64,000 bases of DNA from Candidatus Heimdallarchaeum aukensis (GTDB lineage Archaea > Asgardarchaeota > Heimdallarchaeia > Heimdallarchaeales > Heimdallarchaeaceae). Shown in pieces: positions 27,071 to 55,585 of the stretch (its first letter is position 1; the number at the start of each line of letters is the position of its first letter). The notes below the pieces were generated by a model. The model was not told where the DNA came from. It ran no database searches and was given only the letters and a program-made list of their open reading frames with translations. The stretch spans positions 2,752,001 through 2,816,000 of the forward strand of contig CP084166.1 in the NCBI GenBank assembly GCA_021513695.1, in the 5' to 3' direction. Position numbers and translations under genes: made by a program.

Positions 27071-27086
27071 AATCACTTTTTTTTTC

Positions 27087-30065
27087 TTATTCTTCATTAG
27101 TAGAAGGTAAAAAAACCATTCCTTCTTTTCTTTTTGCGTCAACTCTTACAATTAAGGGTACATCTGTTTGTACATGAACAACATAATCCCCTTCTTCAAT
27201 AATTTTTTGACTTTTTAACCATTCCCAGTTTATAACATGTTTCTCTGAATTGTGTTTTATGTATAGATAACCTAAATTTCCAGCAACAATAGAAGAGAAA
27301 AAGTGACTTCCTTGGCTAAAATCCACACTGAAATCTGATGTTGAAGCTTCAATAATAGCTATAGCACCGTTAATATTTGTCCATTTTACAGGAATACCTA
27401 AAAATCTATCAGCGGTTCCCCATCTACCAAAGCCAATTAGGATATAAGGTGCGTTTTTCTCTCGTAGAATAGCGTTTAATTCATCTATTTCTTGAACAAT
27501 TTCAAGTGTTTTTGTCTTATCAAAAGTCTCTGGCCTAACATAAATAATGTCATTAATATCTTTTCTAATTAAGTTACCACTTACCGTGTTTGAAAAAAGA
27601 ATAATTTTGTCTTTCTGAATCATAGAATAATCTTCAAATTCTAATTCTTCTTGCAACAAAAATGGTCTGATTTGTAGCATATAGAATTGATCTTTTTCTT
27701 CCTTACCAGACTTGAAATTGCCTGCAAATTCTATTTCAATAGGCGAACCCATCGCTTTTTCTCCTATTTCCATCATTGTACTAATTATTTTTGCAAGAGG
27801 AAAGGTTTCTAATTTTAGTTGTTGGTTAAAAGTTATAACTGGAGAACCTTTTTGGTAATATCCTGTCTTCAATGCTTCAGAATTAAAGTCATATGTATCG
27901 GCTATTTTTGTCAAAGATCCGTCTTTTATTGCATGAATTAAGTTATACTTCTTCACATAAGGGTCAGTCGTCTCAATGTCGAATTCGTCTTTTTCCATAT
28001 CTATAGCATAAAAAGTATTTTGGCTTTGTTCAAGAAGTTCTTTAATGTCTGCATAGTAATTAACCTTTGGGTATTTTGGGCTAAATCGAATTGATTGTCC
28101 TCCTTCTACAACATATCTTCCTAGACCTAAAGCCACACTGGCTATCCTATCTTCAGATTTCATATAGTGACCTATTGGATAGAAATTGAAGGAAGAAGCT
28201 GTTCCGCTAAAATTAGGATAGTATCTCCCATCATATCGTTTTCCTACAACTTCTTGTATAACTACAGCCATTTTAGATTGTTCTACAGTCATGTCAATTA
28301 ATTCTGCGTATGTTCGTGCGAGTTTCAAAAAGGGGGAGGCATAGACTAATTTTATTGCCGTACATAATTGATTTAGACGTTTTTTAATATCTGAACTATT
28401 ATTGGGCAACATATAAGTCTCAAAAATTCCTGCAAATGGTTGATAGGCAGAATCTTCTAATAAACTTGAAGAACGAATGGCTAAAGGTTTTTTCAAATCT
28501 TTAAGCAAAAACTGCAAGTCTTCACGTAAACTAGATGATAATTTAGCTTTAACGAACTTTTCTTTTATTTGTTTGTCTGTTATATCTGGTTTGTGAGCAA
28601 ACTCATACAAATTGTTTTCAGCCATAAATTTATCAAATTCATCAGTTCCTATTACAATAGTTTTTGGTATTGTGATTGTAACGTTAGGAAATAGATCTTG
28701 AAGCTTGAATGAATGGATTAAGAACATTATAAAAGCTACTCCTCTCCCCTTTCCTCCTAATGAACCTGGACGAAGTCTTAAAAAAAGTATCTCTGGATGG
28801 TAGCTGTCTTTATTAAAATCATTTACTATCCCTTTGGTTTTCTCTACCACTATTCTTCTAAAATTCTTCAGTAAAAATTCTCTTAATTCTTCGTCTGTGA
28901 ACTCTGAAACTTTTCTGGGCTTAAGTGCTTCTGCTACATCGAACTCTCCTCTAGCATTTAACCATCCAGAAAAATGGTCATTTTTTCCATGATATTTTAA
29001 CGATTCATATGGAATTACCTTTAATTGTTCATAGAATTCAATTATATCTTTTGCTCTTCCCAGTTCTTTTCCTTTTTCATCTCGAAAAATAAATTCACCA
29101 AAACCAACGCATTCTAACAACCATTTATTAAGAGCACTTAAGACCTCGTGACTTCCTTTGTATATGAAGAAACAAGCTAGTTCATCTGCAAGTTTTTTAT
29201 ATTCCTTCTTTGAGGATTGCAAAATTACAGGAAGATTTTTTGTTTCTTTTTTTATTTGTTTTATAAAATCAATTCCTGCATTTTTGTCTAATACTCCATT
29301 TCTCGGGAATTCAACATCAGTAATTACTCCTAAAACATTGCTCTTATACTTAGAAAAATACTCCATCGCTTCTTCGTAAGTTTCAGCAAGTAATATTTTT
29401 GGCCTTATCCTCATCTTAAGTAGATCTAAATAATCGTTTGAACCTTCAAGTATTAATTGATGTGTCTGCTTCATTATGGCCCCATAAAGCTCTGGAAGAA
29501 GGAGTGAATAATGACGAATAGAATCCTCTACAAAAATGAAAACTCTAACATTTGCTATTTTAATATCATTATCAATATTTAATTTATCTTCCAAATGTTT
29601 AACAATTGCTACAAATAGTTTTGAATCACCATTCCAAACAAAAATACGATCAACATTTTTTCTTTTAGATTTTTCAGGTAAATATTTAATTTCTACAACA
29701 CTATTTAAAAGTAGAACTACAGGAATGTTTTTGATTTTCTTTACTTTTTCACCAAAAGTAAAAGGATTAATATCTCCAACCCGACTCATAGTTATTACTA
29801 AATCAAAATCTTCTTTTTTTATTAGCTCTAAAGCCTCAGAAGCTAATGAAACGCGGGTTATTCTTGGAAGAGTTCTCAAGTTAAGGTTCCGAAACTCTTC
29901 ATAAACTTGGTCGGATAACCTCCCATCCTCTTCTAAGAGAAAACTATCGTAGATTGAACTTACAATTAATATATTTTTCATCCTAATTTTCATTAATTCG
30001 TGAAATACTTTGTATCTAGGTTTGTATTCTGAGAATAACTGATTTGAACCTCTTATAAAATCCAA
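27087..30065 (-). CDS. Receiver-like domain(s) fused to PEP/pyruvate-binding (PPDK_N, ATP-grasp) domain protein
   Basis: N-terminal KNILIVSS...DLVITM...PVVLL receiver-like segments; LGGKGRGVAFIM and LAIRSSSLLEDSAYQPFAGIFETY match PPDK_N/PEP-synthase nucleotide-binding motifs (GGK..nL..m; vRSSa..ED...sFAGq.eT). Confidence 0.5.
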   Translation of the reverse strand: MDFIRGSNQLFSEYKPRYKVFHELMKIRMKNILIVSSIYDSFLLEEDGRLSDQVYEEFRNLNLRTLPRITRVSLASEALELIKKEDFDLVITMSRVGDINPFTFGEKVKKIKNIPVVLLLNSVVEIKYLPEKSKRKNVDRIFVWNGDSKLFVAIVKHLEDKLNIDNDIKIANVRVFIFVEDSIRHYSLLLPELYGAIMKQTHQLILEGSNDYLDLLKMRIRPKILLAETYEEAMEYFSKYKSNVLGVITDVEFPRNGVLDKNAGIDFIKQIKKETKNLPVILQSSKKEYKKLADELACFFIYKGSHEVLSALNKWLLECVGFGEFIFRDEKGKELGRAKDIIEFYEQLKVIPYESLKYHGKNDHFSGWLNARGEFDVAEALKPRKVSEFTDEELREFLLKNFRRIVVEKTKGIVNDFNKDSYHPEILFLRLRPGSLGGKGRGVAFIMFLIHSFKLQDLFPNVTITIPKTIVIGTDEFDKFMAENNLYEFAHKPDITDKQIKEKFVKAKLSSSLREDLQFLLKDLKKPLAIRSSSLLEDSAYQPFAGIFETYMLPNNSSDIKKRLNQLCTAIKLVYASPFLKLARTYAELIDMTVEQSKMAVVIQEVVGKRYDGRYYPNFSGTASSFNFYPIGHYMKSEDRIASVALGLGRYVVEGGQSIRFSPKYPKVNYYADIKELLEQSQNTFYAIDMEKDEFDIETTDPYVKKYNLIHAIKDGSLTKIADTYDFNSEALKTGYYQKGSPVITFNQQLKLETFPLAKIISTMMEIGEKAMGSPIEIEFAGNFKSGKEEKDQFYMLQIRPFLLQEELEFEDYSMIQKDKIILFSNTVSGNLIRKDINDIIYVRPETFDKTKTLEIVQEIDELNAILREKNAPYILIGFGRWGTADRFLGIPVKWTNINGAIAIIEASTSDFSVDFSQGSHFFSSIVAGNLGYLYIKHNSEKHVINWEWLKSQKIIEEGDYVVHVQTDVPLIVRVDAKRKEGMVFLPSTNEE

Positions 30066-30337
30066 TTTTTTCTCTCCTTTTGTTACTATTACACTATTTT
30101 GTTTTCTTCCTATTATTATTTTCCTTAGATTTTTAAAAAAAATTGTTTAACGCTGTATGACTGATGTTTTTTGTTTAGACTCTATTAGTTTTTACTTTTT
30201 TTGCTTTTTTAATGATTTTAACTTAAATTATCTCCAAATTTTTAGAGAAAATATATAGTTTCAAAGGAAAAAGTATTTAAATAAAGTATTAGACGAACTC
30301 TTACGTAACTAAGTTACTTATTTACAAGGTGAAAAAA

Positions 30338-30628
30338 ATGTCTGAAGGAGAAAATCAAGAAAGCGTAATTTTTATTGGCCGAAAATCGACTATTTCTTAT
30401 GTGTTGGTAGCTGTTACCATACTAAATAAGAATGATACTTGCAATATTCAAGCTCGTGGAAGACAAATTTCCAAAGCTGTTGATGTTGCAGAAATTACTC
30501 GACGCAAATTCCTTGCTGATCAAGTCGTTGTTGACAATGTCACAATCTCATCAGAAGAATTGCCTTCTGATAATGGAGAAGGAACAAAAACCGTAAGTAC
30601 AATTGAAATTACTCTCAAAAAGAAATAA
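30338..30628 (+). CDS. albA: Alba (Sso10b) DNA/RNA-binding protein
   Basis: VIFIGRKSTISYVLVAVTILNKN...IQARGRQISKAVDVAEITRRKF...VSTIEITL is the Alba signature; ATG 30338 after AAGGTGAAAAAA RBS (track start 30329 is a GTG inside the RBS). Confidence 0.8.
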   Translation: MSEGENQESVIFIGRKSTISYVLVAVTILNKNDTCNIQARGRQISKAVDVAEITRRKFLADQVVVDNVTISSEELPSDNGEGTKTVSTIEITLKKK

Positions 30629-30810
30629 TCTATGAGAGTAATCTAACTCAGAGATTTTTCCAATAATTTTTCTTTTTGTTTTATTTTGAAACTATTTTTT
30701 TGCTCACATAATTCTAAAGTATCGTATTGTAGAGTATAATATAGTTTCGTGTAAAAAATGTGCGCTATTTCAAAATATTATTATATCCAAACTTTAAACA
30801 TTTATAAACA

Positions 30811-32589
30811 ATGAATATCCGAACTAAAAGTGATTTTATTATAGTAGCAATTAGCGTGCTTGTGTTCTCTACAACAAGAGTTATCTATAGCCTTTTAATA
30901 ATAAATTGGAATAATTATGAAAAAGGGAATGTTACACCTTCATTTTTATTTTGGATAGATTTTATATCCTATTTTGTGGTTTTTTTCTTGTATTTGCTCT
31001 ATGGGTGGTATATTCGAAGGAAACTTGTTAAAAAAAATCAAGATAAAGGAGATTATTCCTTACATTATATTATTAGAATATTTATTACTATTTATGCCCC
31101 CATTTTCCTCATATCTTTTGTTATTTCTTTTATAAAACAAATTGATTTACGGATATACTATACTGCATCGATATTTAATGAAACAGTTCAAATGATGTTT
31201 TTTAGTACACTAGTGGGTATTCTTCTATATAATCAAATTGAGCAATTTTTCTCTAAAGTTTTTAAATCTTCTAATTATCAAAAATATTCTTCTGAAGAGT
31301 TGACTTTTCTTGAGCAATCAATAGTCAAAACAATTAACCGTTTTTGGAGTTATGCGCTTTACACAGTTCTATTTTTTGTTTTTTTAGCAAATTTTTTGGT
31401 TTTAGTAATCTATCCAAGTATCCCTACAGAATACGATTCTAGTATCAAATTAATTATAGCCTATCCAAATTTCTCTTTTACCTTTAATAAAGAAACAGGT
31501 TTTCATCAAGAATTTTTTACTTATCTTGCACTAGATTATACAAAGTTTCTTAACTGGAAATTAATTCAGTCTTTACTCTGTATTCTTTTTATTTTAGCAA
31601 TAGCACTACTTTATTATCTTCCTTTGCATAAAAAAGAAAACGAACCTTTAAACAATGTAGAAAAACAAGAGATTGCAGAAATAAAATCTAAAACAGAAGA
31701 AGTTCAAAGCACAGAAAAAGGAATACTCAAGCAAAAAGATACAACAAAGTTAAACAACACAGGTCTACAACAAGAGATTGATTCCATCGTTTTCCTAAAC
31801 ACTGAAAATGATTATTATACTCCAATAGGTTTTATTAAGAAAAGAAACAGAAAACTTGAAAAATTGTTGTCTCAAATGAAAAAAAGTGATATTATCCCTG
31901 TGATGAATCTTGCTGCTTTGAATCTGGGTTTAGCTATGGTTTTTGTTTATTTTGTTCACTTATTTGTTCCATTAGCATATTCAAGTTACACATTATCAGA
32001 TATTCTTTATATCCAACTTTCATCGTTGTATTGGGCTGGATTATTTGAAGAAATTTCTTTCAGATTCTTGATCATGGGTGTTCCCTTATTTATTATTCAT
32101 GGTTTTCGTTACTTAATAGCAAAGATTTTACAATATTATAAATCAAAAAATGAGGTTCCAGTGAAAGAAAAAGAAGAAAACAAAAAAATAGAGAATCCTT
32201 TTCTCTATTTAACTGGTCGTTGGAAAAAGTTAAGGATTATTGATTTTGTTTTCTTGATAGCTTCTTCTTTCTTTTTTGGTTATGTTCATTATCAATTTGG
32301 AAGTTGGGCTATATGGAAAATCTTTCAGGCTGGAATTGCTGGACTTATTTTTGGATATGCTTTCTATAAATTTGGTTTGCACGCAGCTATCTTCCTTCAT
32401 ACAGTCAATGATTTTGCAATAGGTATAATGCTTGTTCCAAATTTAGGGTTAATGGTTCAAGGAGGATTTGTAGTTATTGTACTTGTTTTAATGGGAATAA
32501 TGTACTCATTCTATATTTTTTCATTATTTCTTAAAAAAACAAGCAATCTAAGCTTTAGAAAATTGAATAAACAAAAAGAGGTAAACTAA
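30811..32589 (+). CDS. CPBP-family (CAAX-protease/Abi, Rce1-like) intramembrane metalloprotease with long polytopic N-terminal extension
   Basis: C-terminal motifs EEISFRF (EExxxR), FGYVHYQ (FxxxH), HTVNDF (HxxxN/D) in TM helices. Confidence 0.6.
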   Translation: MNIRTKSDFIIVAISVLVFSTTRVIYSLLIINWNNYEKGNVTPSFLFWIDFISYFVVFFLYLLYGWYIRRKLVKKNQDKGDYSLHYIIRIFITIYAPIFLISFVISFIKQIDLRIYYTASIFNETVQMMFFSTLVGILLYNQIEQFFSKVFKSSNYQKYSSEELTFLEQSIVKTINRFWSYALYTVLFFVFLANFLVLVIYPSIPTEYDSSIKLIIAYPNFSFTFNKETGFHQEFFTYLALDYTKFLNWKLIQSLLCILFILAIALLYYLPLHKKENEPLNNVEKQEIAEIKSKTEEVQSTEKGILKQKDTTKLNNTGLQQEIDSIVFLNTENDYYTPIGFIKKRNRKLEKLLSQMKKSDIIPVMNLAALNLGLAMVFVYFVHLFVPLAYSSYTLSDILYIQLSSLYWAGLFEEISFRFLIMGVPLFIIHGFRYLIAKILQYYKSKNEVPVKEKEENKKIENPFLYLTGRWKKLRIIDFVFLIASSFFFGYVHYQFGSWAIWKIFQAGIAGLIFGYAFYKFGLHAAIFLHTVNDFAIGIMLVPNLGLMVQGGFVVIVLVLMGIMYSFYIFSLFLKKTSNLSFRKLNKQKEVN

Positions 32590-33176
32590 TGACACTTGAT
32601 AGCAGATTATACTTTAAAGTTGTTTTAGCTGGAGAAGCAGGGGTAGGAAAAACAAGTCTTCGAAGAAGTTATTTGGGAGTAGGATTCCAGACACAGCATT
32701 TAAGTACTATAGGTGCAGACTTTGCAAGTTATTCTACAAAAATAAATGAACAAAGAGTGAATTTTCAGATTTGGGATTTAGCTGGTCAAGATATCTTCGA
32801 AAGCATGCGAAATTTGTATTATAAAGGAAGTTTGGGTGCATTGATGGTTTTTGATGTAACCGATGTATCTAGTCTAGAAGCCTTAAACAATTGGATAATT
32901 GAATTAGATAAAAATTCAGGTAGAGGAATTGTACCTTTTTCCATATTAGGAAATAAAATAGATCTATTAGATGAGGAAGAACTCAATAAAATAAGAAAAA
33001 CTGTAGACTTAGTCATAAAAAAATACAATAAAAAATTTGCAAGTAAGGGTTTTTCGATTAATTATTTTGAAACTTCAGCGAAAACTGGCCATAATGTCAA
33101 AATCGCTTTTAATAATCTTGGAGAATCAATTTTTAATTATCTTGAATTCAGAAGAAAGAAGAGGGAAGAAAGTTGA
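32589..33176 (+). CDS. Rab/Ras-like small GTPase
   Basis: G1 GEAGVGKTS, G2 T in switch I, G3 WDLAGQD, G4 GNKIDL, G5 ETSAKTG; start overlaps CPBP stop (TAATG); no C-terminal CAAX. Confidence 0.8.
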   Translation: MTLDSRLYFKVVLAGEAGVGKTSLRRSYLGVGFQTQHLSTIGADFASYSTKINEQRVNFQIWDLAGQDIFESMRNLYYKGSLGALMVFDVTDVSSLEALNNWIIELDKNSGRGIVPFSILGNKIDLLDEEELNKIRKTVDLVIKKYNKKFASKGFSINYFETSAKTGHNVKIAFNNLGESIFNYLEFRRKKREES

Positions 33177-35527
33177 AAAATATTGATGTTGAACTAAGAG
33201 ATTTATTGAGAACTGGAAAAAAAGAATCTATTGATATAAATAACCTAAAAAAACTAAAAAGTATAATTCTCTTCCTAAATGACGAGGATCGTGAAATAAG
33301 ACGTACTACACAAGAGATTCTCTTATCTGCTCCTATAATCCCAGTTAGCGAAATTGTTGATCTTTATCTCTCTACTGAGAGTGAATATGTTGCTGATTTT
33401 ATAGTTGAAAATTTAAATATTTTCTTAATTGATTTGGTAGACAGATTTAGTAACAAGATAGATAGTATTATTGTTTCTGAATTAATTAAAAAAATCCCTG
33501 TAAAAGATTTATTTGCTACTTTAGTCGAAATCGCTGAAATTACTCCTATTTCAGCTAAAAAAGCTGAACTCATAATCCGAACATGTTATCCTTCTTTTTC
33601 AGAAAGCATGAATTCATTAATATCCTATGATTTTATTGAAAATTTCAAAAAAGAGATAAAAAAACTTCTTTCTATAAGACTAAAAGAGAATGATAAAAAT
33701 ATTACAACTCTTGTTCTAAAGACTGCGTGTTTCTTTCCTGAACTTCCCCCTCTGATAGAAAAAGAACTAATTAATATCATTAATCATTCAGATATAGAGG
33801 AACACATAATTTATGCAACTACTGCTTTAATAAATGTAGAAAACAAAAAGAATGCGCAGATTCTAGCTAATAGACTTAAAAATGGAAAAGATTCAGAAAA
33901 AGTAAAATTAGCTATTATTGAATCCCTTGGTAATATAGGAAATCCAAAGATTGCGCCAATAATGATCGAATTATTCGATGAAGGAGGACAGATAGCTTAC
34001 TCTACATCTAAAAGTCTGGGGTCAATGGGTGTTGAAGTCTTACCTTATTTAGTTCAAGCATTAAAAGAAGATCGTTATATACCAAATATTGTAGAGTCTA
34101 TGAAACGTATTGGTAGTGCAAGCTTCGAATATCTGATGACTAGCTTGGAAAAGGAAAGAAATATACAAATTAGAAAAAACATTGCTCATTGTTTAACACT
34201 GGTGATGCATGAACAATATGGTTATGAGGGAACAATTAAACTACTAACAAACGAATTAGCAGGAAAAAATCGAGAGCTAGTAGAAGCAGTAACTCAAGCG
34301 CTAATAAATTTAGGTACTCCTTCAATTGAGTATCTCATTGATGAATTAAATGATAAAGATCGCGAATTAAGAAAAAATGCAGTAAAAATTCTTGAACATT
34401 TTGGAGAAGGAAATATTGAAATTGCTCTTGATGGGTTACTTGAAACAGATGAAGATAGAGTAGGTACATTGAGTATTATATTATATGTTTACCATCCTGA
34501 TGAAAGATTAAGAAAATTAGGATATTCTTTTGCTGTTCATAAAGGAAATCTAAGAGCTAAAAAAACAGACAAATTACTTGAAATATTGACTGATGCCCTT
34601 AATGAAATTGACCCCTATATTCGAATTCGTTCTTGTGATATACTTGTATTTTTCAAAAGTAAGGCCATTCCTCATTTAACCAAACTTCTCTCTGACCCAA
34701 ACATTCTAGTTAAAAGAAAAGCAGCAGAGGCACTACGTACAATAAAAAGCAAAAGAGCATTAATAGCATTGATGAATGCTGCTACTGATAAAGACCCAAT
34801 AGTTTCTGAAATTTCTACAAGAGCTTTGGGAGAATTAGGAGATCCAGGTGTTGTAGATATCATTCTTGGGAATTTAAAGAGAAATAGTCAAGCAATATAT
34901 GAAGCTTCAGTTTATGCTCTTTCTCAACTAGGAACACCTATATTACACAAGATAACAAAAGAATTAAGCAGTTCAAATAAAAAAGTTGTAGATGGTATAG
35001 TCGATGCAATATCGAAAATAGGGACAGTTGGACTAGAAATTCTGATAAAAAAATATTTAGAAGAGAACGGAAGAAGAGTTGCACAAATTGAACGAATAAT
35101 TGGAAAAATGGGCGAAACAGCAATACCTGCAATATTAGAAATATATGAAAAGACTAGTGATTCTCAAAATAAAGAAAAGTTATTGAGACTAAGGGCAAAG
35201 ATTAAAGATACTTCTGTAACTAAAGAAATAGTTGAAAAGCTACAAAAACCAGCTAGTAAAAAAACAGCAATTGAACTTATAAATTTGATTGGAATTGAAT
35301 GTGTGAATAAAATAGTTGATGAATTACTCAAATTAGAACAAAACAAAGTAAAAAGGATTTTCACAAAGAATATTAAAATTGAACCTAAAATATTGGTTTC
35401 GATTATTAAGGAGTTGAAATTAAGAGAACAACAGCAACTTGCACTACATCTTATTAATCAAAACCAAAGAACGTTAAAGAAATTTGTAAGCGAGAATCCA
35501 GAATTTGAAAGTTTGTTTGAAGAATAA
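33173..35527 (+). CDS. HEAT/PBS-lyase-type repeat protein
   Basis: Repeated about 30-aa helical repeats with ...ALG.IG.P.A...L...L.D motif (for example AIIESLGNIGNPKIAPIMIELFDEG; ALRTIKSKRALIALMNAATDKDPIVSEISTRALGELGDP); start overlaps GTPase stop (TTGA). Confidence 0.6.
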   Translation: MKNIDVELRDLLRTGKKESIDINNLKKLKSIILFLNDEDREIRRTTQEILLSAPIIPVSEIVDLYLSTESEYVADFIVENLNIFLIDLVDRFSNKIDSIIVSELIKKIPVKDLFATLVEIAEITPISAKKAELIIRTCYPSFSESMNSLISYDFIENFKKEIKKLLSIRLKENDKNITTLVLKTACFFPELPPLIEKELINIINHSDIEEHIIYATTALINVENKKNAQILANRLKNGKDSEKVKLAIIESLGNIGNPKIAPIMIELFDEGGQIAYSTSKSLGSMGVEVLPYLVQALKEDRYIPNIVESMKRIGSASFEYLMTSLEKERNIQIRKNIAHCLTLVMHEQYGYEGTIKLLTNELAGKNRELVEAVTQALINLGTPSIEYLIDELNDKDRELRKNAVKILEHFGEGNIEIALDGLLETDEDRVGTLSIILYVYHPDERLRKLGYSFAVHKGNLRAKKTDKLLEILTDALNEIDPYIRIRSCDILVFFKSKAIPHLTKLLSDPNILVKRKAAEALRTIKSKRALIALMNAATDKDPIVSEISTRALGELGDPGVVDIILGNLKRNSQAIYEASVYALSQLGTPILHKITKELSSSNKKVVDGIVDAISKIGTVGLEILIKKYLEENGRRVAQIERIIGKMGETAIPAILEIYEKTSDSQNKEKLLRLRAKIKDTSVTKEIVEKLQKPASKKTAIELINLIGIECVNKIVDELLKLEQNKVKRIFTKNIKIEPKILVSIIKELKLREQQQLALHLINQNQRTLKKFVSENPEFESLFEE

Positions 35528-35528
35528 G

Positions 35529-36533
35529 CTAAAAATCTTTTTTCTCAATTTCTCCTTTTTGCATTTGTGGTATTAACTCTTTTATCAGTAAAGGAAGCAA
35601 GTTAAGTTCCATGTGAAAAGGAGAAAAAATTTCGATATTTTTCTCATCAAAATTGAAATATGGTTTTTCTACAGTTTCCACAAGATAATAGTCTAATATT
35701 TTAAAATCTTGAATAGTTGAAAAGAGTATAGTAAAATTTTCAGTTAATTGTTGCAATATTTTCTCTTTTTCTGATTTTGAAGTAAGCTGGAAAAGGTTTA
35801 GATAGCCTTCTGTTTCCATATGAATGTATAATTTAGTGGTGTTATCAATTAAATTTATTCTAGGAAATTTCTCTACTAATGGCGTCTTTGCTGCTAGAAC
35901 ATTAGTTAGTTTATTTCTCTCAGGAATAATAGTATGATCTGTTAGTATCAAAAACTTGTTAACGCGTATCCTTTTACTTTTAAAAAGAAATTCTTTATTA
36001 TCCGGATTGTAACTGATTTCTTGTTTCCTATATTCTATTAGTTCTACTTTTAATTTTTTTAGTTCATTTAAAATATAAGCTGCTAAACCCCCTAAATTAT
36101 TTATAACAAGTGAGGAATCAGAAATTAAGCCCTTGTTATATCTCTCTGAATTTAATAAAGGGAGAGTTTGTTTAATCTCTTTTTGTCTTAAAATACTGCA
36201 GTTCATATTAGAATTTTGTAGTTTATTATACATCTCTTCAGTTTCACGTAGAGAACTGTTTAGAATTAATAGTGAAGCTTTTGAAATATCAAAGGATTTT
36301 GTAGTGTAAAATAAATCATTATAAAATTCTAAAGAGGTAGTCAATATTTGTTCAATCTTTTCTAGTGGGTATGAAAATAATGGATAGACAAAACTAGGGA
36401 GAAAAAGACTGTTGCGAATAAGTTCTTCGTTGTAAAAATAAGTTATCTTTAAATCTGAATTTTCTTTCATTATTTGATAGACTAAAATTAAGCTGGTGAG
36501 ATTATTTCCAATGACAACTATATCTCTTTCCAT
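35529..36533 (-). CDS. Hypothetical protein
   Basis: 334-aa ORF, convergent with HEAT gene; no domain recognised. Confidence 0.3.
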   Translation of the reverse strand: MERDIVVIGNNLTSLILVYQIMKENSDLKITYFYNEELIRNSLFLPSFVYPLFSYPLEKIEQILTTSLEFYNDLFYTTKSFDISKASLLILNSSLRETEEMYNKLQNSNMNCSILRQKEIKQTLPLLNSERYNKGLISDSSLVINNLGGLAAYILNELKKLKVELIEYRKQEISYNPDNKEFLFKSKRIRVNKFLILTDHTIIPERNKLTNVLAAKTPLVEKFPRINLIDNTTKLYIHMETEGYLNLFQLTSKSEKEKILQQLTENFTILFSTIQDFKILDYYLVETVEKPYFNFDEKNIEIFSPFHMELNLLPLLIKELIPQMQKGEIEKKDF

Positions 36534-36584
36534 TATTCAAATAATAACAAATGGATTTATAAATTCGATTGTGTAGAGAAACAT

Positions 36585-36863
36585 ATGTCATATGTGATAA
36601 AATTAAAAGTAATTAAACAAGAAGGACATTGTGCTTCAGGGCACAAAGTTGGGGATGAAATTGAGATTAATTACAATGACAATTCAATAAAAGGAAAAAT
36701 TTGTCTTCATGCTCTCTATTCAATTCTTCCCAAAGTTTTTGCTATGGCGTATGGATCTGAGTTTCCATGGTTAGAAAATGCTGATGTTTCCACACATGCA
36801 TGTCCAGATTACAAGAATCCAGTGGTTTTTGAGGTTAGAAGAGAAAAAATAAAAGAAAATTAA
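36585..36863 (+). CDS. Small Cys/His-containing hypothetical protein
   Basis: 92 aa with HCASGH ... CLHA ... HACPDY possible metal-binding residues. Confidence 0.3.
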   Translation: MSYVIKLKVIKQEGHCASGHKVGDEIEINYNDNSIKGKICLHALYSILPKVFAMAYGSEFPWLENADVSTHACPDYKNPVVFEVRREKIKEN

Positions 36864-36896
36864 ACTTTAGATATTTCAAAAATAAAAAAAGATAAG

Positions 36897-37817
36897 CTAT
36901 CCTTTGACCAATTTTATTATTGCATCTATTATAAAATCTAATAGAAATACAAGGAATACGATTAATAAGATTTCTTTTGTAGTATATGCCCATTTAGGAT
37001 TTTGAGTAATGATTATTGCTATAGCTAAACCTAATACTAGTAGAGCCAAGATAATAGCAATAATAAGTGAGGGTAAGTATAAGTCAGCAATAATCATCGC
37101 ACCAATAGCTCCCCCTGCTAGACCTAGAAGGAAAAAAGCACCTACGATGCCAGCTACTCTTGGACCAAAAACAACAGCTATAGTTTTGTTTCCTGCTTTT
37201 TTATCTCCTTCGATGTCTGGTAAACCTTTTATTACTTCTCTACCTACATTTCCAGAAGCTGCCGCAAGACCTACAATAGTTGGAACCCAAGTAAAACCTT
37301 GTTGATAAACAAAATAACTGAATAGAGATCCATAGACAAAGAGAGCTACAACATTCAATCCAATAAGCACATTACCAAAAAATCCCATCTGTTTTACTTT
37401 GAAATTGTATAAGTTTAATGAACTTCCAAATATTAAAGCTGTAATAACACTTATTCCTGGTAAACCTTCTCTAATATCAATTAACAAAGCTAAAATTAGA
37501 GCGATCAAAGCAACAATTACCCCGTAAATAACTGCTGTTCTTACTGATATTTTCTTTGATGGTATAGGTCTATGTGGAGCATTTACTAGATCTTCTTCTC
37601 TGTCTGCAATATCATTAAAAATCATAGCTTGAGATGAAACGAGCGTACCAGATAATAGAACAAGTAGAAGGGTTATGTAATCAATTTTTGCTCCTACAGG
37701 AGTTGATAGAATGATAGCAAAAATTGCAGCTGTTCCTGCTACTATACCATTTACTAACCTAAGAATTGTTATATAAGAAAGAAAAATATCTTTTTTCGAG
37801 TGTTTTGTTAAAGACAT
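36897..37817 (-). CDS. UbiA-family prenyltransferase (possibly DGGGP-synthase-like)
   Basis: NDIADREED (NDxxDxxxD) Mg2+/diphosphate motif, about 8 TM; 3' 720 bp lie inside repeat copy 1. Confidence 0.65.
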   Translation of the reverse strand: MSLTKHSKKDIFLSYITILRLVNGIVAGTAAIFAIILSTPVGAKIDYITLLLVLLSGTLVSSQAMIFNDIADREEDLVNAPHRPIPSKKISVRTAVIYGVIVALIALILALLIDIREGLPGISVITALIFGSSLNLYNFKVKQMGFFGNVLIGLNVVALFVYGSLFSYFVYQQGFTWVPTIVGLAAASGNVGREVIKGLPDIEGDKKAGNKTIAVVFGPRVAGIVGAFFLLGLAGGAIGAMIIADLYLPSLIIAIILALLVLGLAIAIIITQNPKWAYTTKEILLIVFLVFLLDFIIDAIIKLVKG

Positions 37818-39240
37818 AAGGTCTAATCATTAGCAGATGAATTTAAATCTTACCTCTTTTTTTGAGTATAAATTACTCGCTTTTTTTTCCTGTTATCTCA
37901 AATGTTTTGATTTCACTATCATTTTCAGGAAGTTTAAGCAGTTCTAAAAGTGATAAGATCATCTTGCCAAATAATTTTTCCATAAATTCATTTAAAGGAA
38001 TCTCTTTTCCATTAATCTTTACTTCTATTTCATCTAACATGAAAAAAAAAACACTGTTGAGTTTATTAATTTTATCTTAATCTCAAATGAATAATTATAA
38101 CTTTTTTAGTTAAAGAATTCACTTAACCAAGAGTTCACTATACTTTTTTGCTAAATTAAATGAAAAAAATTTAAAGAAAAGAAGCAATAAAATTATATTT
38201 AAATATTATGAGCGTAGGTAAGAATATAGGTGTAAATTTTCATGGAAGTAGGTGCGTTAATTTTTATGCTACTAATTGCACTGGCAGTGTACATAACCAT
38301 AAGGGTTTCCTCAGCGAATAAGAAGAAGAGAAAACAAATTTATCGTAAACGATATCAACCTTATCAACCTTACAGACCTTATCAGCCATCACACCTAGAT
38401 TCTTCTCAAAGAACAAGTTATCAGAGTGAAGAAACCACCCCAACAACAAGAACTTCTTCTATTTATCAACCTCAAACTCAACCCTCTTATACTCCACAAA
38501 GAACTCCAATAGCAACAAATAATGCCGATGATTATTATCGTGCAGGAATGTACGATAGAGCAAAAGAAGAATATCTTAAAACAGGGAGGATATTTGGTGC
38601 AGCTAAATCTGTAGCTTCTAAAGGAAAAGAATATGTAAAAGAAGCTTTGGAAATAATTAGACAATATGCTCCAGAAAGAGAAGAAGAAATGGTAAGAAAT
38701 CTTTCAAGATACTTTTTTGATAGTGGAGATGTAGAATTATCAGCTCAAGTATTATATGATTATAATCTTATTGAAGAAGCTAAAGCAGTATTAGCTACCA
38801 TAGGAAAGAGTATAGAAGATATAGTTGAACCTAAATCTGTTGAGATTAGCACATTCAGTAGCACTGAACCCTTTCTATCTAGTACTGAAAGTGAAACAGA
38901 ACCTATCATTTCCAGTTTTGCTAGCGATACTGAACCAATAAATGATGCAAGAGAAGAGCTGAAAGTATTGGCAAGTGAAGAAGAAGCAGAACCCATTGAG
39001 CCTTTTACAAGTCAAGTTGAAAAACAGAAAAAAATAGAACCACAACAACTAAAGATAGCTACAGTAGATTTAGATGAAAGATGTACAGTTTGTTTAGGAG
39101 AAGTAAAAGCAGGAGAAAGTTTTGTTAGATGTCCCCATTGTGGAAAACCTTCTCATTATTCTCATTTAGTAGAATGGCTAAAAGTAAAAACCCAATGTCC
39201 TAACTGTAGAAACAAATTATCATTAAATATGTTTAAAACA
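37098..39240. repeat. Tandem direct duplication, copy 1 (2143 bp)
   Basis: Sequence 37098-39240 recurs at 39241-41381 with only two single-base differences. Confidence 0.9.
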
Positions 39241-39264
39241 CGCACCAATAGCTCCCCCTGCTAG
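38242..39264 (+). CDS. Membrane-anchored, Pro/Tyr/Gln-rich protein with C-terminal RING/PHD-like (C4H2C2 cross-brace-type) zinc finger
   Basis: N-terminal TM (LIFMLLIALAVYITI), low-complexity YQPYQPYRPYQP...TPTT region, C-terminus CTVCLGEVKAGESFVRCPHCGKPSHYSHLVEWLKVKTQCPNCRN. The last 8 codons (RTNSSPC) are created by the duplication junction; native end is ...MFKT*. Confidence 0.55.
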   Translation: MEVGALIFMLLIALAVYITIRVSSANKKKRKQIYRKRYQPYQPYRPYQPSHLDSSQRTSYQSEETTPTTRTSSIYQPQTQPSYTPQRTPIATNNADDYYRAGMYDRAKEEYLKTGRIFGAAKSVASKGKEYVKEALEIIRQYAPEREEEMVRNLSRYFFDSGDVELSAQVLYDYNLIEEAKAVLATIGKSIEDIVEPKSVEISTFSSTEPFLSSTESETEPIISSFASDTEPINDAREELKVLASEEEAEPIEPFTSQVEKQKKIEPQQLKIATVDLDERCTVCLGEVKAGESFVRCPHCGKPSHYSHLVEWLKVKTQCPNCRNKLSLNMFKTRTNSSPC

Positions 39265-39960
39265 ACCTAGAAGGAAAAAAGCACCTACGATGCCAGCTAC
39301 TCTTGGACCAAAAACAACAGCTATAGTTTTGTTTCCTGCTTTTTTATCTCCTTCGATGTCTGGTAAACCTTTTATTACTTCTCTACCTACATTTCCAGAA
39401 GCTGCCGCAAGACCTACAATAGTTGGAACCCAAGTAAAACCTTGTTGATAAACAAAATAACTGAATAGAGATCCATAGACAAAGAGAGCTACAACATTCA
39501 ATCCAATAAGCACATTACCAAAAAATCCCATCTGTTTTACTTTGAAATTGTATAAGTTTAATGAACTTCCAAATATTAAAGCTGTAATAACACTTATTCC
39601 TGGTAAACCTTCTCTAATATCAATTAACAAAGCTAAAATTAGAGCGATCAAAGCAACAATTACCCCGTAAATAACTGCTGTTCTTACTGATATTTTCTTT
39701 GATGGTATAGGTCTATGTGGAGCATTTACTAGATCTTCTTCTCTGTCTGCAATATCATTAAAAATCATAGCTTGAGATGAAACGAGCGTACCAGATAATA
39801 GAACAAGTAGAAGGGTTATGTATCAATTTTTGCTCCTACAGGAGTTGATAGAATGATAGCAAAAATTGCAGCTGTTCCTGCTACTATACCATTTACTAAC
39901 CTAAGAATTGTTATATAAGAAAGAAAAATATCTTTTTTCGAGTGTTTTGTTAAAGACATA
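39241..39960 (-). pseudogene. UbiA prenyltransferase fragment (copy 2): 3'-truncated at the repeat junction and frameshifted
   Basis: Same sequence as 37098-37817 but missing one A (GTTATGTATCAA vs GTTATGTAATCAA), which splits the N-terminus; lacks the C-terminal 67 codons. Confidence 0.6.
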
Positions 39961-41381
39961 AGGTCTAATCATTAGCAGATGAATTTAAATCTTACCTCTT
40001 TTTTTGAGTATAAATTACTCGCTTTTTTTTCCTGTTATCTCAAATGTTTTGATTTCACTATCATTTTCAGGAAGTTTAAGCAGTTCTAAAAGTGATAAGA
40101 TCATCTTGCCAAATAATTTTTCCATAAATTCATTTAAAGGAATCTCTTTTCCATTAATCTTTACTTCTATTTCATCTAACATGAAAAAAAAAACACTGTT
40201 GAGTTTATTAATTTTATCTTAATCTCAAATGAATAATTATAACTTTTTTAGTTAAAGAATTCACTTAACCAAGAGTTCACTATACTTTTTTGCTAAATTA
40301 AATGAAAAAAATTTAAAGAAAAGAAGCAATAAAATTATATTTAAATATTATGAGCGTAGGTAAGAATATAGGTGTAAATTTTCATGGAAGTAGGTGCGTT
40401 AATTTTTATGCTACTAATTGCACTGGCAGTGTACATAACCATAAGGGTTTCCTCAGCGAATAAGAAGAAGAGAAAACAAATTTATCGTAAACGATATCAA
40501 CCTTATCAACCTTACAGACCTTATCAGCCATCACACCTAGATTCTTCTCAAAGAACAAGTTATCAGAGTGAAGAAACCACCCCAACAACAAGAACTTCTT
40601 CTATTTATCAACCTCAAACTCAACCCTCTTATACTCCACAAAGAACTCCAATAGCAACAAATAATGCCGATGATTATTATCGTGCAGGAATGTACGATAG
40701 AGCAAAAGAAGAATATCTTAAAACAGGGAGGATATTTGGTGCAGCTAAATCTGTAGCTTCTAAAGGAAAAGAATATGTAAAAGAAGCTTTGGAAATAATT
40801 AGACAATATGCTCCAGAAAGGAAGAAGAAATGGTAAGAAATCTTTCAAGATACTTTTTTGATAGTGGAGATGTAGAATTATCAGCTCAAGTATTATATGA
40901 TTATAATCTTATTGAAGAAGCTAAAGCAGTATTAGCTACCATAGGAAAGAGTATAGAAGATATAGTTGAACCTAAATCTGTTGAGATTAGCACATTCAGT
41001 AGCACTGAACCCTTTCTATCTAGTACTGAAAGTGAAACAGAACCTATCATTTCCAGTTTTGCTAGCGATACTGAACCAATAAATGATGCAAGAGAAGAGC
41101 TGAAAGTATTGGCAAGTGAAGAAGAAGCAGAACCCATTGAGCCTTTTACAAGTCAAGTTGAAAAACAGAAAAAAATAGAACCACAACAACTAAAGATAGC
41201 TACAGTAGATTTAGATGAAAGATGTACAGTTTGTTTAGGAGAAGTAAAAGCAGGAGAAAGTTTTGTTAGATGTCCCCATTGTGGAAAACCTTCTCATTAT
41301 TCTCATTTAGTAGAATGGCTAAAAGTAAAAACCCAATGTCCTAACTGTAGAAACAAATTATCATTAAATATGTTTAAAACA
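39241..41381. repeat. Tandem direct duplication, copy 2 (2141 bp, two 1-nt deletions)
   Basis: Identical to copy 1 except loss of one A near 39823 and one A near 40823. Confidence 0.9.
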
Positions 41382-41384
41382 TAA
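40384..41384 (+). pseudogene. RING/PHD-like membrane protein gene (copy 2) disrupted by a -1 frameshift
   Basis: CCAGAAAGGAAGAAG in copy 2 vs CCAGAAAGAGAAGAAG in copy 1; ORF split into 40384..40836 and 40830..41384; keeps native C-terminus ...NMFKT*. Confidence 0.6.
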
Positions 41385-41391
41385 TAAAATT

Positions 41392-41880
41392 CTATTTTTT
41401 TTCCACACCCTCATTTTGATATATACCACTATATCCTTTTGCCACTTTATCTTTTATTTCGAAAAAGACTAGTTGAGCAATTCTCGCATTTTGATGGATG
41501 TTTATTGTTCTAGAAGTATAGAGAAGGCCTATTCCTCTTCCTTTGTATCCTGGATCCCATAAAGCAGAAAAAATAGTTGCTCCGATTCTCATCAATGAAG
41601 AACGAGGAAGAAGAATTGCCGCCATATCTAATGGCACACTGACTATTTCATTATATTGGACTACATATCCACCAGGTTGAAGAACCCAGCGGTTATTACT
41701 TTTTGGTAGTTCAACATAATCAGGAATAAATCTTTGTGAATTATCGAAGTCTAGTTCTCCACCATCATCAAGAATAAAGATGTTCCGTACAGTAAGATCG
41801 ATGCCTGCACTTTGAACTTGCTTTTTTATATTCACTGCGGAACTAACATTGTTTATAATAGAAGAAGGAGGAATAATCAT
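41392..41880 (-). CDS. dCTP deaminase/dUTPase family protein
   Basis: Motifs RSSLMRIG, WDPGYKGR, ARIAQLVF typical of the Dcd/Dut beta-barrel family. Confidence 0.75.
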   Translation of the reverse strand: MIIPPSSIINNVSSAVNIKKQVQSAGIDLTVRNIFILDDGGELDFDNSQRFIPDYVELPKSNNRWVLQPGGYVVQYNEIVSVPLDMAAILLPRSSLMRIGATIFSALWDPGYKGRGIGLLYTSRTINIHQNARIAQLVFFEIKDKVAKGYSGIYQNEGVEKK

Positions 41881-41953
41881 TTAATCTCACATTTTTCTTA
41901 TAGTTGCTAAGCTTCAAATTAGTTAATTATTGATCTTTTTTCTAAAGCCTATA

Positions 41954-42271
41954 TTAGTTGAAATAGGAACTGAGTTTCTCTTCTTTTTGGCAAACGTTGC
42001 AGTCTTCTTCTTGATAACTTAATATGTCTCTTGCAATTTTTGCGTTGTGTCTATCCTTCTGAATGCTATAGCAAAGTTTTGAAGGAGAACATGTTCCTTT
42101 TGTAAAGTAGGTCTTCTTATTTGCATTATAGAAAAGTTTTCCTCCTTTTAATGGACAGTTACAAACTTCGATATATACAGGAGAGTTATCATAATTAATG
42201 TTAGTTATCTTAGCAAGTGCTTTTTCTAACCTATTATCCAGATAATGATCTTGAACCTTTTGATAAGTCAT
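41954..42271 (-). CDS. Small Cys-rich hypothetical protein
   Basis: 105 aa, CNCPLKGGK...TCSPSKLC...CNVCQ possible zinc-ribbon-like ligands. Confidence 0.3.
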   Translation of the reverse strand: MTYQKVQDHYLDNRLEKALAKITNINYDNSPVYIEVCNCPLKGGKLFYNANKKTYFTKGTCSPSKLCYSIQKDRHNAKIARDILSYQEEDCNVCQKEEKLSSYFN

Positions 42272-42329
42272 TGTAATTAAATTACAATGTTAAGTATAAA
42301 GATGTGTAATACTTAAGAATTATAGTTAA

Positions 42330-43880
42330 CTAAGTTAGGATATTTTCTCAATAACATGGTCTACTTTTTCCTAAATTCCGATTTAGATTAAAAATCGGAA
42401 GAAGTAGTAAGTTTAGTCGGTGGAAAAAAAGAAAGAGAAAGAACAGCGTAAAAGCTGGTCTAACTAACTTAACTTGCTAACTTATTTTCCAACGGACGGG
42501 GTGAACCACTGCAGCCCAGACTATCCCGTAGTTAGACATAACAGAGAATAACGTGGGGAATACTTTGCGACCGATATTACCTGCAGAGTTGATATCAGCA
42601 TTAATTTTTAATCCTCTGGTACTGATGAACAGTCCACGGTGAGTTCTTTTGCCAGCATAATGGGGGTGAAAAGCTATCTCTTCATTATCTAAGAAACTGC
42701 AGACAGAGGTGTAGGACTCTTCGGTAGGAATAACTTTTATCCCTTTTTCTTCTGCTTTGTAAGTGATTTTGTCAATGAGGGATTTAAAGGGGATAAAAAC
42801 AAAGGTTTGATTATTTTTCTTTCCCATATTCACTTTCTGTTTCCATCTGGGGTTGTAACCTATAACTATCGTATCAATGTTTTTTTCTAAACAGTAGTCT
42901 ATTATCTTCCTACTTGCTTTATGGAAATAGTCAGCTATTTTACACATTCGTTCTAACTGGAGAGTAAGCATTTTTCTTCCCCAGGTGGTTAATCCTTGCT
43001 TGTCATAGATTGACTGTAATTTTGCCCTACGTTTATTAAACCACTGATTAACAGCTTTAATGGGTCTACCATTTATCAGAAAACCTTTTTCACCAGGAAT
43101 AGTGGTTAACCCGCCTACAAGGTTATTCACTCCCAGATCAAGAGCTAGAACTCTTTCTGCATGTCGTTTTTTTCGTTCTTCTATCTCTTTCTCGTAAACT
43201 ATCTCTAATTTAAATTTCGTTCCCATAGGTATAAGACGGGCAAACTTCACTTTCGTTGAAGGACACAGTCTTGTAACTATCTTTAGTCCTACACGTTTAG
43301 GGAAAGAGATAAAAAATTTTTCTTTTTCTTGCTCTTTTTCTTCTTTAATTTTCACTTGAGAGTTAGTAAAATAGATTATAGCAAGTCCATCTTTCTTCTT
43401 CTATTTTGGAGGACGGGGTTTACCATTAAACTTTTCTGGTTCTTTTTTGCATTCTTCTAAAGACCTAAAATACCCTTTCCACGCTAAACATAGAAACTTT
43501 ATCGTCTGTTGTGCCGTATGACCAGGTAGTGCTGTGTAGGTCGGGTGATACCTTAAAATATTCATCAGTTCGAACTCTCTCGTGAAATATTTACTTTTTC
43601 TTAACTGATACTTAATAATGTAATTTGCTTGATTATACAAGTTTTTTACCTGGTGTGCCAACTGCTTTAGAGTGATCGATTCTTTCACCCATATTTCCTC
43701 AGTTCGGTACACCTTTTTCCTCATTTTTTCTTTCATTTATTTTTACTTTTTTCCCTATTTAAACTCCTCATCTTCCCTCCTCTCCTCTCTTCTCCTCTCC
43801 TTTATTCTTCTTTTTTCCCCCTCTTCTACAACTTCGTAATTTCGGAAAAAGTAAACCATCAGAACTTCTTTTACGCATTT
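42330..43880 (-). mobile_element. IS200/IS605-like element remnant (tnpB only, no tnpA); boundaries approximate
   Basis: Solo tnpB; GC-rich 3' end region (42480-42560) where omega-RNA scaffolds normally lie; CT-rich tract 43751-43835 at the 5' side. Confidence 0.35.
42477..43736 (-). pseudogene. tnpB: IS200/IS605-family tnpB (OrfB, RuvC-like RNA-guided nuclease) interrupted by one in-frame TAG
   Basis: Track ORFs 43401..43736 and 42477..43355 are in the same frame, separated only by TAG at 43401-43403. Downstream part has LALDLGVNNLV (RuvC-I), zinc-finger Cys and INADINSAGNIGRK motifs. Confidence 0.7.
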
Positions 43881-48298: not shown

Positions 48299-48320
48299 TT
48301 ACAGTACAACTCTATAATTA

Positions 48321-48400
48321 TTTTATACTTTATAGTTATTTTATATACTTTATAGTTATTTTATATACTTTATAGTTATTTTATATATTTATGTTTTATA
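48321..48400. repeat. 20-bp tandem repeat x3 plus one degenerate copy (unit TTATATACTTTATAGTTATT) in a divergent promoter region
   Basis: Directly visible at 48321-48340, 48341-48360, 48361-48380 and degenerate at 48381-48400. Confidence 0.75.
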
Positions 48401-48482
48401 TTTTTTGTATCTGACAACTTGAGAAATCTTCCGAATAAGTTATAAGTGATAAACTCTAATAACGATTAGTCAGTATACTGAT

Positions 48483-49373
48483 TTGTTATGTGAGGATAAA
48501 AGCATGTCTTCAAAAGTAATAGAATCAATAGCTTATAGCTATGTAGGAAGATTAATTGAACCCTATCTAACAGAATTTGAAGGTTTAAGGACCACACTAA
48601 AAAAAGCCGGAATAGAGCAAAGTGTTAGGATGTATTTAAGCATTAGACTATTCTGGTCCATAGTTTTATCAATAGTTTCACTTTTTGTTCTAATTGCAGT
48701 AAAAATACTAGTACCAAGTTTTTCAGTCATACTGGTTGTCATATTACCTGTGCTAATTTTGTTGACAATGTTTGTAATAACATGGGTATACCCAAGTTAT
48801 CTGATAGGTGAAAGAAAAAGAAAACTAGAAGCAGCTTTACCCACTGCAGCAAGCTATATGACTGCCATGGCTTCTGCAGGAGTTACACCAGATAAAATTT
48901 TCCTTGCTTTATCTAAAGAAGAAAGCATTGGTGAAGCTATTGTTAAAGATGCTAAAAAAATCTCTCGTGATATTCAAGTTTTTGGTTATGATATTGTTCA
49001 TGCTTTAAGCGAAGCATCATCACGTTCTCCTTCTCCTAAGTATTCAAGTTATTTAGAGGGGATTGTTGCGACTTTTACCTCTGGAGGAGAACTTCAGCGA
49101 TTTTTAGAAGTTTCTACTGAAAACTTGATGAGAGATAAAGTTCAAACTGAAAAGAATTTTATTGAAGCGTTAGGTTTAACTGCAGAGTTGTACATGGTTG
49201 TAGGAGTTGTAACTCCTATTTTCTTTATCGTTATAATTGCAATGATGGCCATGTTGGGTGGTAGTGCAAATACTGGGGCTAATGCTCTTCTAGCAATTAC
49301 AGTTTACATAGTCATACCTGTTGGAATGCTGGTAATTATTCTTTTAGTGGACATGCAACAACCGGAGGATTAA
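48483..49373 (+). CDS. TadB/TadC (FlaJ/GspF-like, T2SSF domain) pilus assembly membrane protein 1
   Basis: Single T2SSF-like domain ...LPTAASYMTAMASAGVTPDKIFLALSKEES... flanked by TM helices. Confidence 0.55.
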   Translation: MLCEDKSMSSKVIESIAYSYVGRLIEPYLTEFEGLRTTLKKAGIEQSVRMYLSIRLFWSIVLSIVSLFVLIAVKILVPSFSVILVVILPVLILLTMFVITWVYPSYLIGERKRKLEAALPTAASYMTAMASAGVTPDKIFLALSKEESIGEAIVKDAKKISRDIQVFGYDIVHALSEASSRSPSPKYSSYLEGIVATFTSGGELQRFLEVSTENLMRDKVQTEKNFIEALGLTAELYMVVGVVTPIFFIVIIAMMAMLGGSANTGANALLAITVYIVIPVGMLVIILLVDMQQPED

Positions 49374-49383
49374 GGTGAGTTAA

Positions 49384-50286
49384 ATGGCAATTAAAGATGA
49401 AGTTGAGATAAAAACGAAAGAGTTTCAGATTAGTGTTGATATAATCTATTGGGTTATAGCAGTTTTTGCGGGATTGGTTATAGTTGTATTAGGTGTTTTA
49501 GATTATATTTCTTCTACTGATTTGATAACCATATTAGATATAAATGACTTTATTATATTAGCCATAATTATATCAATGGGTATTCCAACCTTTTTAATAG
49601 TTTACAGAGAAGAACGTAGACAAGCTCGTATTGATGAGAATTTACCATATCTCCTCCGTGAAATCTCAAATGCACAACGAACAGGTATGAGTCTCCCTCG
49701 AGCAATAAAAGAAGCAGCGAAGAGACACTATGGTCCTTTAACTCCCGAATTACGTAAAATGTCAAGTAAAATTTCTTGGGGTATTCCTTTTAGTAAAGCT
49801 ATGTCTGATTTTCAAAGTGCAATAAATACACAGATGGCTCAGAGAGCTACCATTCTAATTTTAGAGGCTGAACGTTCTGGAGGAAATCTAGAGGATATTT
49901 TTGAATCAACAGAGAAACATGTTCAACAGTTACTTGATCTCAAAAAAGAACGAGAAGGAGCAATGCGACCCTACTTGATGATTTGTTATGCTGCATACAT
50001 CATTTTTGTCTTAGTGGTCTTCATATTATTCCAAACATTCTTTTATCCTTTTGGTACATTGGATGTTTCTAGTGAGATGTTTAGTTTTAGTATAGATTTA
50101 GATACACTTTCTGTTCTGTTCCTTCATATGCTAGCTGTCCAAGGCTTCTTCACTGGTCTTGTTGCTGGAAAAATGGCAAAAACAAAAGTTAAAGCAGGAT
50201 TAATGCATTCTGTGATACTAATGTTTATTGGTTGGTTTGCATTTAAAGTTCTCATTCAAAATCAACTTATCACACTAAATTTGTAA
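49384..50286 (+). CDS. TadB/TadC (FlaJ/GspF-like) pilus assembly membrane protein 2
   Basis: Second T2SSF-like domain ...LPYLLREISNAQRTGMSLPRAIKEAAKRH...; GGAGGA RBS. Confidence 0.55.
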   Translation: MAIKDEVEIKTKEFQISVDIIYWVIAVFAGLVIVVLGVLDYISSTDLITILDINDFIILAIIISMGIPTFLIVYREERRQARIDENLPYLLREISNAQRTGMSLPRAIKEAAKRHYGPLTPELRKMSSKISWGIPFSKAMSDFQSAINTQMAQRATILILEAERSGGNLEDIFESTEKHVQQLLDLKKEREGAMRPYLMICYAAYIIFVLVVFILFQTFFYPFGTLDVSSEMFSFSIDLDTLSVLFLHMLAVQGFFTGLVAGKMAKTKVKAGLMHSVILMFIGWFAFKVLIQNQLITLNL

Positions 50287-50295
50287 GGTGATTGT

Positions 50296-50727: not shown

Positions 50728-50736
50728 ATCAAATAG

Positions 50737-53038: not shown

Positions 53039-53077
53039 AAATAGAAAAATGATTAAAAAAGCTTCTATTTATTTTAA

Positions 53078-53707: not shown

Positions 53708-53796
53708 TCTATCACCAATCAGACTTATATTTATTCACAAATATAAACTTAACAATATAAACAAAATAAGAGAAAGGAAAATGGAGAATTAATTTA

Positions 53797-55326: not shown

Positions 55327-55585
55327 TTTATCTCTATATCGTTAAAGCATTCATTACTTATAATTTTTTTGAATTTATCTAAAGAAAAAGGCAAAACGTG
55401 AAAAAAGCTTGTAAAAGAATTTACAAAGACTAATGACAATTTGACGAGAATAAAAAGTGAAAAACAGAAATTTATTTGATTTGCAAAACTTTTTCATGTT
55501 AAAAAGATAAAAAGAATTAAAGTTAATTGGTAATTGTTAGTTAATTTATAGTAACTGTTAATCTGTTAATTGCTATGATTCTTTA

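Follow-up and report, generated by a model that had tools for sequence, protein, structure and literature searches.

A head-to-tail 2.1-kb repeat in the deposited chromosome of Candidatus Heimdallarchaeum aukensis, most probably an assembly artefact

The repeated unit and its genes

Candidatus Heimdallarchaeum aukensis PM71 is among the few Asgard archaea with a circularised genome and is used as a reference in questions on the origin of eukaryotes. In the stretch of its chromosome analysed here (the window: 64,000 nucleotides of contig CP084166.1 in GenBank assembly GCA_021513695.1, positions 2,752,001 to 2,816,000) part of a gene for a UbiA-family prenyltransferase and a neighbouring RING-like gene are present twice, since the 2143 nt at 37098-39240 recur head-to-tail as the 2141 nt at 39241-41381. 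The repeat had been described before from the letters of the sequence alone, and global alignment of the two copies bore it out, with three gap-free blocks, 0 mismatches and two 1-nt gaps. A repeat finder returned three exact 300-nt direct-repeat families with spacings of 2143, 2142 and 2141 nt, and no other long repeat occurs in the 64-kb window. The duplication exists in the database sequence but most probably not in the organism, and we draw no new biology from it.

The left edge of the unit coincides with the boundary of codons 240 and 241 in the 306-codon UbiA gene, which is intact at 36897-37817 on the minus strand (306 aa, UJG40608.1); the preliminary description was thus right in placing one end of the junction inside this gene and in calling its second copy 3'-truncated. 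At its right edge the unit ends directly ahead of the RING-like gene's stop codon, whereas a distance of 3 nt had been proposed. The true product of this gene (38242-39240) has 333 aa and ends in NMFKT, and copy 1 (38242-39264, plus strand; 340 aa, UJG40610.1) runs on into the tail RTNSSPC at 39241-39261, with its stop codon at 39262-39264. As seven aligned homologues all end at the NMFKT position, the tail of copy 1 is aberrant, which is in agreement with the preliminary description, although the eight codons given there (39241-39264) comprise seven residues plus the stop. Between the two genes the unit holds an open reading frame (ORF) of 55 aa at 37873-38040 on the minus strand, with its duplicate at 40015-40182; it was also called in contigs of Logan and JGI and has no family match.

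At the junction of the two copies (39236-39245) AAACA is followed by CGCAC, with 0 bases shared with either flank. In its wider context TTTAAAACA on the left meets CGCACCAAT on the right, which can also be written as ATATGTTTAAAACA meeting CGCACCAATAGC. In the alignment identity stops at both unit edges without one extra base, and no microhomology was found at the junction.

Copy 1 agrees in full with the one copy of an independent Illumina assembly, and the two 1-nt deletions, the sole differences between the copies as had been claimed, are both borne by copy 2, each being the loss of a single A. Deletion 1 lies at 39821/39822, where GTAATCA has become GTATCA (GTA[A]TCA, copy-1 position 37679), and deletion 2 at 40820/40821, where AAAGAGAAG has become AAAGGAAG (AAAG[A]GAAG, copy-1 position 38679). 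It was also correctly stated that each of them frameshifts a gene, since the first breaks UbiA copy 2 at codon 47 and the second breaks RING copy 2 at codon 146. What is left of UbiA copy 2 is a C-terminal fragment of 198 aa (39223-39819, minus strand, UJG42165.1), which reads across the junction and ends in GACFKHI, and an N-terminal fragment of 47 aa produced by deletion 1 (39816-39959, minus strand, UJG40611.1). RING copy 2 is split by deletion 2 into an N-terminal fragment of 150 aa (40384-40836, plus strand, UJG40613.1) and a C-terminal fragment of 184 aa (40830-41384, plus strand, UJG40614.1), the latter with the true stop codon.

The pattern of these differences is informative. In unit coordinates the two deletions are spaced by exactly 1000 nt (offsets 582 and 1582); two sites placed at random in the unit would show this with a chance of about 5e-4, a figure calculated post hoc. 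Neither deletion lies in a homopolymer. Between the window and relatives of 98.5% identity we counted 123 mismatches and 6 gaps over 9 kb, or about 20 substitutions per indel, and the 2 indels and 0 substitutions that separate copy 1 from copy 2 do not match this natural mutation spectrum of the lineage. Indels without substitutions, a junction without microhomology and the 1000-nt spacing together look like the product of joining or patching rather than of mutation. The spacing in itself is a hint of a 1-kb block joined with off-by-one ends.

The genes caught up in the repeat, like the adjoining archaeal dUTPase gene (NF002598, 161 bits) and the TnpB gene beyond it, are themselves ordinary. 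The UbiA gene matched Pfam PF01040 at 104.6 bits (cut-off 34.2), and its matches to the NCBIfam prenyltransferase and GGGP geranylgeranyltransferase equivalogs were all below the cut-offs, so that its exact substrate is not assigned. The RING-like protein matched PF13639 (zf-RING_2) marginally, at 27.5 bits against a cut-off of 27.3, and the Cys/His columns C281, C284, C297, C300, H305, H308, C319 and C322 were invariant across 8 homologues. The protein has 59 homologues, of which the named ones are mostly from Heimdallarchaeia. It is membrane-anchored; a hydrophobic segment at the N terminus is followed by a linker rich in proline and tyrosine, a middle domain and, at the C terminus, a RING-H2-like finger. 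Strong conservation marks the middle domain, which spans about 100 aa, contains the invariant motifs GRIFGA.KS..KG and YAPERE.EM.RNLSRYFFDSG, and has no Pfam match.

Copy number in the public record, independent assemblies and relatives

The GenBank chromosome of Ca. H. aukensis (3,081,793 bp) carries every product of the duplication annotated as the window encodes it, and the duplication is hence publicly recorded and not something inserted into the window. This is the sole entry on record with the UbiA fragment that spans the junction and with the three fragments made by frameshift. The intact 306-aa UbiA protein is on record in Logan too, and for the 340-aa RING product no gene is on record in the index of encoding contigs.

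An independent view of the locus is given by the Logan contig SRR15988954_169 (52,991 nt), which comes from the automatic assembly of a public run and carries the exact 306-aa UbiA. This contig equals window positions 26897-39240 at 100% and without gaps and then continues directly with 41382-42391; it thus holds a single unit, in the copy-1 version, free of the deletions and with the RING gene intact at 333 aa. Other parts of the same contig and a second contig of the run matched the window at 4096-26126 and 48358-60286 with 100.000% identity, which indicates that they derive from the same population, and along about 50 kb this run departs from the window in nothing but the extra copy with its two deletions. 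On sequence identity only, the run may be assigned to BioProject PRJNA721962. In a further run, SRR15988958, one contig (L034) passes the right edge of the unit into the dUTPase flank and another (L036) passes the left edge into the 3' flank of UbiA, both without the deletions.

Copy number was also compared with that of related genomes, a check named in the preliminary description, and one copy was found in each of those compared. In two environmental contigs from JGI/NCBI (L037 and L038, aligned at about 98.5% nucleotide identity; three further similar ones were reported and are not displayed) the dUTPase, the RING gene (333 aa), the 55-aa ORF and UbiA (306 aa) are present once each. A single copy was also found in the sister species Ca. 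H. endolithica PR6, whose identity is about 86%. A scan of JGI metagenome contigs for a 29-mer of the junction gave 0 matches, to which no weight can be given, since a control 29-mer from the wild-type edge also gave 0. This control is found exactly in L037 and L038, the JGI contigs that carry it being Ga0366832_1010741 and Ga0366835_1008603; its absence from the hits means that the scanned collection is without these records, and that negatives from it are uninformative for the lineage. Scans of the window for tRNA, Rfam families and tandem repeats gave nothing that bears on the duplication.

Origin of the second copy

The way in which the deposited genome was built offers a route to such a repeat. 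Illumina PE150 data of Ca. H. aukensis were assembled with metaSPAdes with k up to 99, and scaffolding was carried out in two iterations of LRScaf 1.1.10 with Nanopore reads from DNA amplified by multiple displacement amplification (MDA), one of the Nanopore libraries having been amplified by polymerase chain reaction (PCR) as well, while the Illumina library was apparently not MDA-amplified (Wu et al. 2022, PMC8813620). The Nanopore reads served for scaffolding only and not for the consensus, identical sequences at the genome ends were trimmed manually by the authors, one unresolved 1-kb stretch was Sanger-sequenced, and pilon, at 346x, was used to correct the final assembly (PMC8813620). LRScaf draws its sequence from the contigs and not from the reads, and estimates gap sizes from the noisy reads; if the gap so estimated falls below zero it merges the contigs, and otherwise Ns are inserted. 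One step of this assembly route can place overlapping pieces, or pieces used again, end to end.

We therefore hold it to be highly probable that the second copy (39241-41381) is a false duplication that arose in contig scaffolding or merging, and that the deletions entered with it. The organism would then have one copy of the 2143-nt stretch, in the order dUTPase, RING-like gene, 55-aa ORF and UbiA, and the same 2143 nt would have entered the sequence twice, end to end and untrimmed, at a joining, merging or patching step, either because two overlapping pieces were concatenated or because a single contig or graph edge was taken up a second time. The two 1-nt deletions would have arrived with the extra copy, plausibly through off-by-one joins of a block of about 1 kb. 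Pilon would have been unable to repair copy 2, as under best-hit mapping the Illumina reads of the true locus should align perfectly to copy 1, and reads placed at copy 1 would leave little evidence at the two faulty sites of copy 2. The preliminary description had left the choice between a duplicate already in decay and an artefact; the single clean copy in independent assemblies, in conspecific environmental contigs and in the sister species argues for the artefact and against the decaying duplicate. Its further suggestion that the indels are consensus errors may not be quite right, since they lie outside homopolymers and resemble errors of a join or patch more than errors of base calling.

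The main rival is a genuine and very recent tandem duplication present in a minority of the enrichment cells and written into the consensus by way of the Nanopore scaffolding, with the two deletions being either real early decay of a redundant copy or errors added by the assembly. We regard this as improbable. The arrangement did survive the authors' pipeline, the Logan evidence bounds the junction to a low coverage fraction only, and both deletions lie in the copy with the truncated UbiA, as would be expected if a redundant copy were free to decay; yet the fragments made by the junction and by the frameshifts were found in no independent assembly, and the combination of two indels, 0 substitutions and an exact 1000-nt spacing is unlike mutational decay. 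Tandem duplications in prokaryotes usually show microhomology or longer repeats, of which this junction has no trace, and MDA, by which the Nanopore DNA was amplified, is known to create chimeric joins. Taken at its word, such a reading asks for a duplication only generations old, formed without microhomology, in which the redundant prenyltransferase and RING-type, E3-like genes have already been frameshifted, and a history of this kind seems to us hardly likely. Less likely than a duplication in a minority of cells are a repeat fixed in the population and a scaffolded MDA chimera. A fixed duplication would be collapsed by all short-read assemblies, since a perfect repeat of 2.1 kb exceeds the read length and its collapse would yield a single copy, which would fit with two copies being seen only in the assembly aided by long reads. 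Collapse, however, leaves junction k-mers at full coverage and forces contig breaks at both edges. When the window as written is turned into a de Bruijn graph with k=31, branches occur exactly at both unit edges and at both deletion sites, so that with junction k-mers at comparable depth an unbroken contig through 37098 and 41381 is impossible; SRR15988954_169 is unbroken through both, by which a duplication fixed in the population is excluded, and the SRR15988958 contigs cross each edge as well. With conspecific strains and the sister species being single-copy, and with long reads having been used for scaffolding and not for the consensus, we consider a fixed duplication the least credible of the explanations.

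It was also considered that the repeat might stem from the bench, as a direct-repeat chimera, made by template switching of phi29 in MDA or by PCR, that was abundant in the Nanopore reads and was faithfully scaffolded. The amplification history of the Nanopore libraries would allow for this, and the assembly of the Illumina library, apparently made without MDA, lacks the junction. On the other hand LRScaf uses contig sequence, so a near-perfect second copy would still need a contig to be used twice, the junction shows no microhomology, and most MDA chimeras are inverted, not direct, and usually carry microhomology. A chimera of this origin is in our view very unlikely, if slightly less so than a fixed duplication.

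Several points weigh against a false duplication made during assembly. The Logan contig rules out a duplication fixed in the population but not one confined to a minority of cells, since a short-read assembler with graph cleaning of the Minia type can drop a low-coverage loop-back junction as an erroneous connection, at a cut-off of roughly a quarter of the neighbouring depth, and copy number was judged here from assembled contigs. The authors' pipeline accepted the arrangement, and the Nanopore reads may have supported it. The one 1-kb manual patch in the paper lies elsewhere, and the steps of the published Methods give no explanation of the 1000-nt spacing; nor does the model of a simple concatenated overlap account for two non-homopolymer 1-nt deletions 1000 nt apart.

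Other candidate sources were examined. The 1-kb Sanger patch was rejected as the origin of the 1000-nt spacing, its five primers being absent from the window (with up to 3 errors allowed, and by any exact 14-mer). Homopolymer errors of the sequencing platform were rejected as the origin of the deletions: the indels that the assemblies of lower-coverage runs show against the window are all in A or T runs of at least 6, unlike the two sites in copy 2. The neighbouring TnpB insertion element was dismissed as a cause, since it is placed about 1 kb past copy 2 and has no sequence in common with the edges of the unit. Finally, the Logan contigs of SRR15988958 break at 37186-37198, that is 100 nt inside the left edge of the unit, a distance equal to the largest SPAdes k of the authors (99) plus 1. 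The break could be a weak spot at which the assembly of the authors was broken too, or a coincidence, and the idea that the unit edges were vertices of a SPAdes graph at k=99 is suggestive and not demonstrable.

Consequences, neighbouring features and likeness to known systems

If the second copy is an artefact, five GenBank proteins are spurious, three of which have UniProt entries too: UJG40610.1 would bear a false C-terminal tail, and UJG40611.1, UJG42165.1, UJG40613.1 and UJG40614.1 would be spurious fragments. The chromosome would exceed its true length by about 2.1 kb, and the counts of RING/E3-like genes, of UbiA genes and of pseudogenes for the genome would be slightly inflated. More generally, "complete" genomes put together from short-read contigs and noisy long reads can conceal false duplications of kilobase size that are beyond the reach of short-read polishing.

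Other features of the window were recorded alongside. A TnpB-only element of the IS200/IS605 type lies at 42357-43879 on the minus strand (OrfB_IS605, a Cas12f1-like TNB domain, and guided_TnpB at 115.8 bits); it is missing at this site in PR6 and present in environmental contigs of about 98% identity. Its frame seems to be split into ORFs of 111 aa and 292 aa (43401-43736 and 42477-43355), and as the same 292-aa ORF was called in an environmental contig, a sequencing error is probably not the reason for the split. The Logan contig SRR15988954_169 stops exactly at the edge of this element (42391). At 48309-48392, upstream of two T2SSF-like genes (48483-50286), is a 20-nt tandem repeat of 4.3 copies with 92% matches, within which the Logan contig SRR15988954_653 terminates (48358). 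From about 58098 to beyond 60286 (9741-11929 of L030) runs a ribonucleotide reductase ORF, of 2561 aa in the Logan call, with at least 3 intein/LAGLIDADG insertions. At 30811-33170 and in its surroundings (genes at 7075-9440 of L001) a small GTPase of the Arf/Ras/Roc family (195 aa) is flanked by a 592-aa protein without a family match and a 784-aa HEAT-repeat protein, a cluster of the eukaryote-like signature genes that are typical of Asgard archaea.

When set beside known systems, the repeat has something in common with each of three. Like chimeras made by phi29 in MDA, which join sequences a few kb apart, it comes from a genome whose long-read DNA was MDA-amplified; unlike them, for they are mostly inverted and joined at short homology, its second copy is direct and of short-read quality rather than derived from reads. 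With genuine prokaryotic tandem duplications, formed by illegitimate or homologous recombination, it shares the head-to-tail order, the kilobase scale, the chimeric ORF at the junction and the truncated gene copy, and it differs from them in having no repeat or microhomology at its end points, no support from the same population and a spectrum of indels only. False assembly duplications arise where overlapping contig ends or repeated graph edges are concatenated at scaffold joins. The repeat differs from these in the length of its overlap, 2143 nt being far above the SPAdes k-mer overlap (at most 99 nt), and in the two deletions of its extra copy. In its other traits it resembles this class of artefact, being an exact head-to-tail copy with arbitrary end points inside genes and a clean junction without microhomology, which came out of a hybrid pipeline, is absent from independent assemblies and from relatives, and survived short-read polishing.

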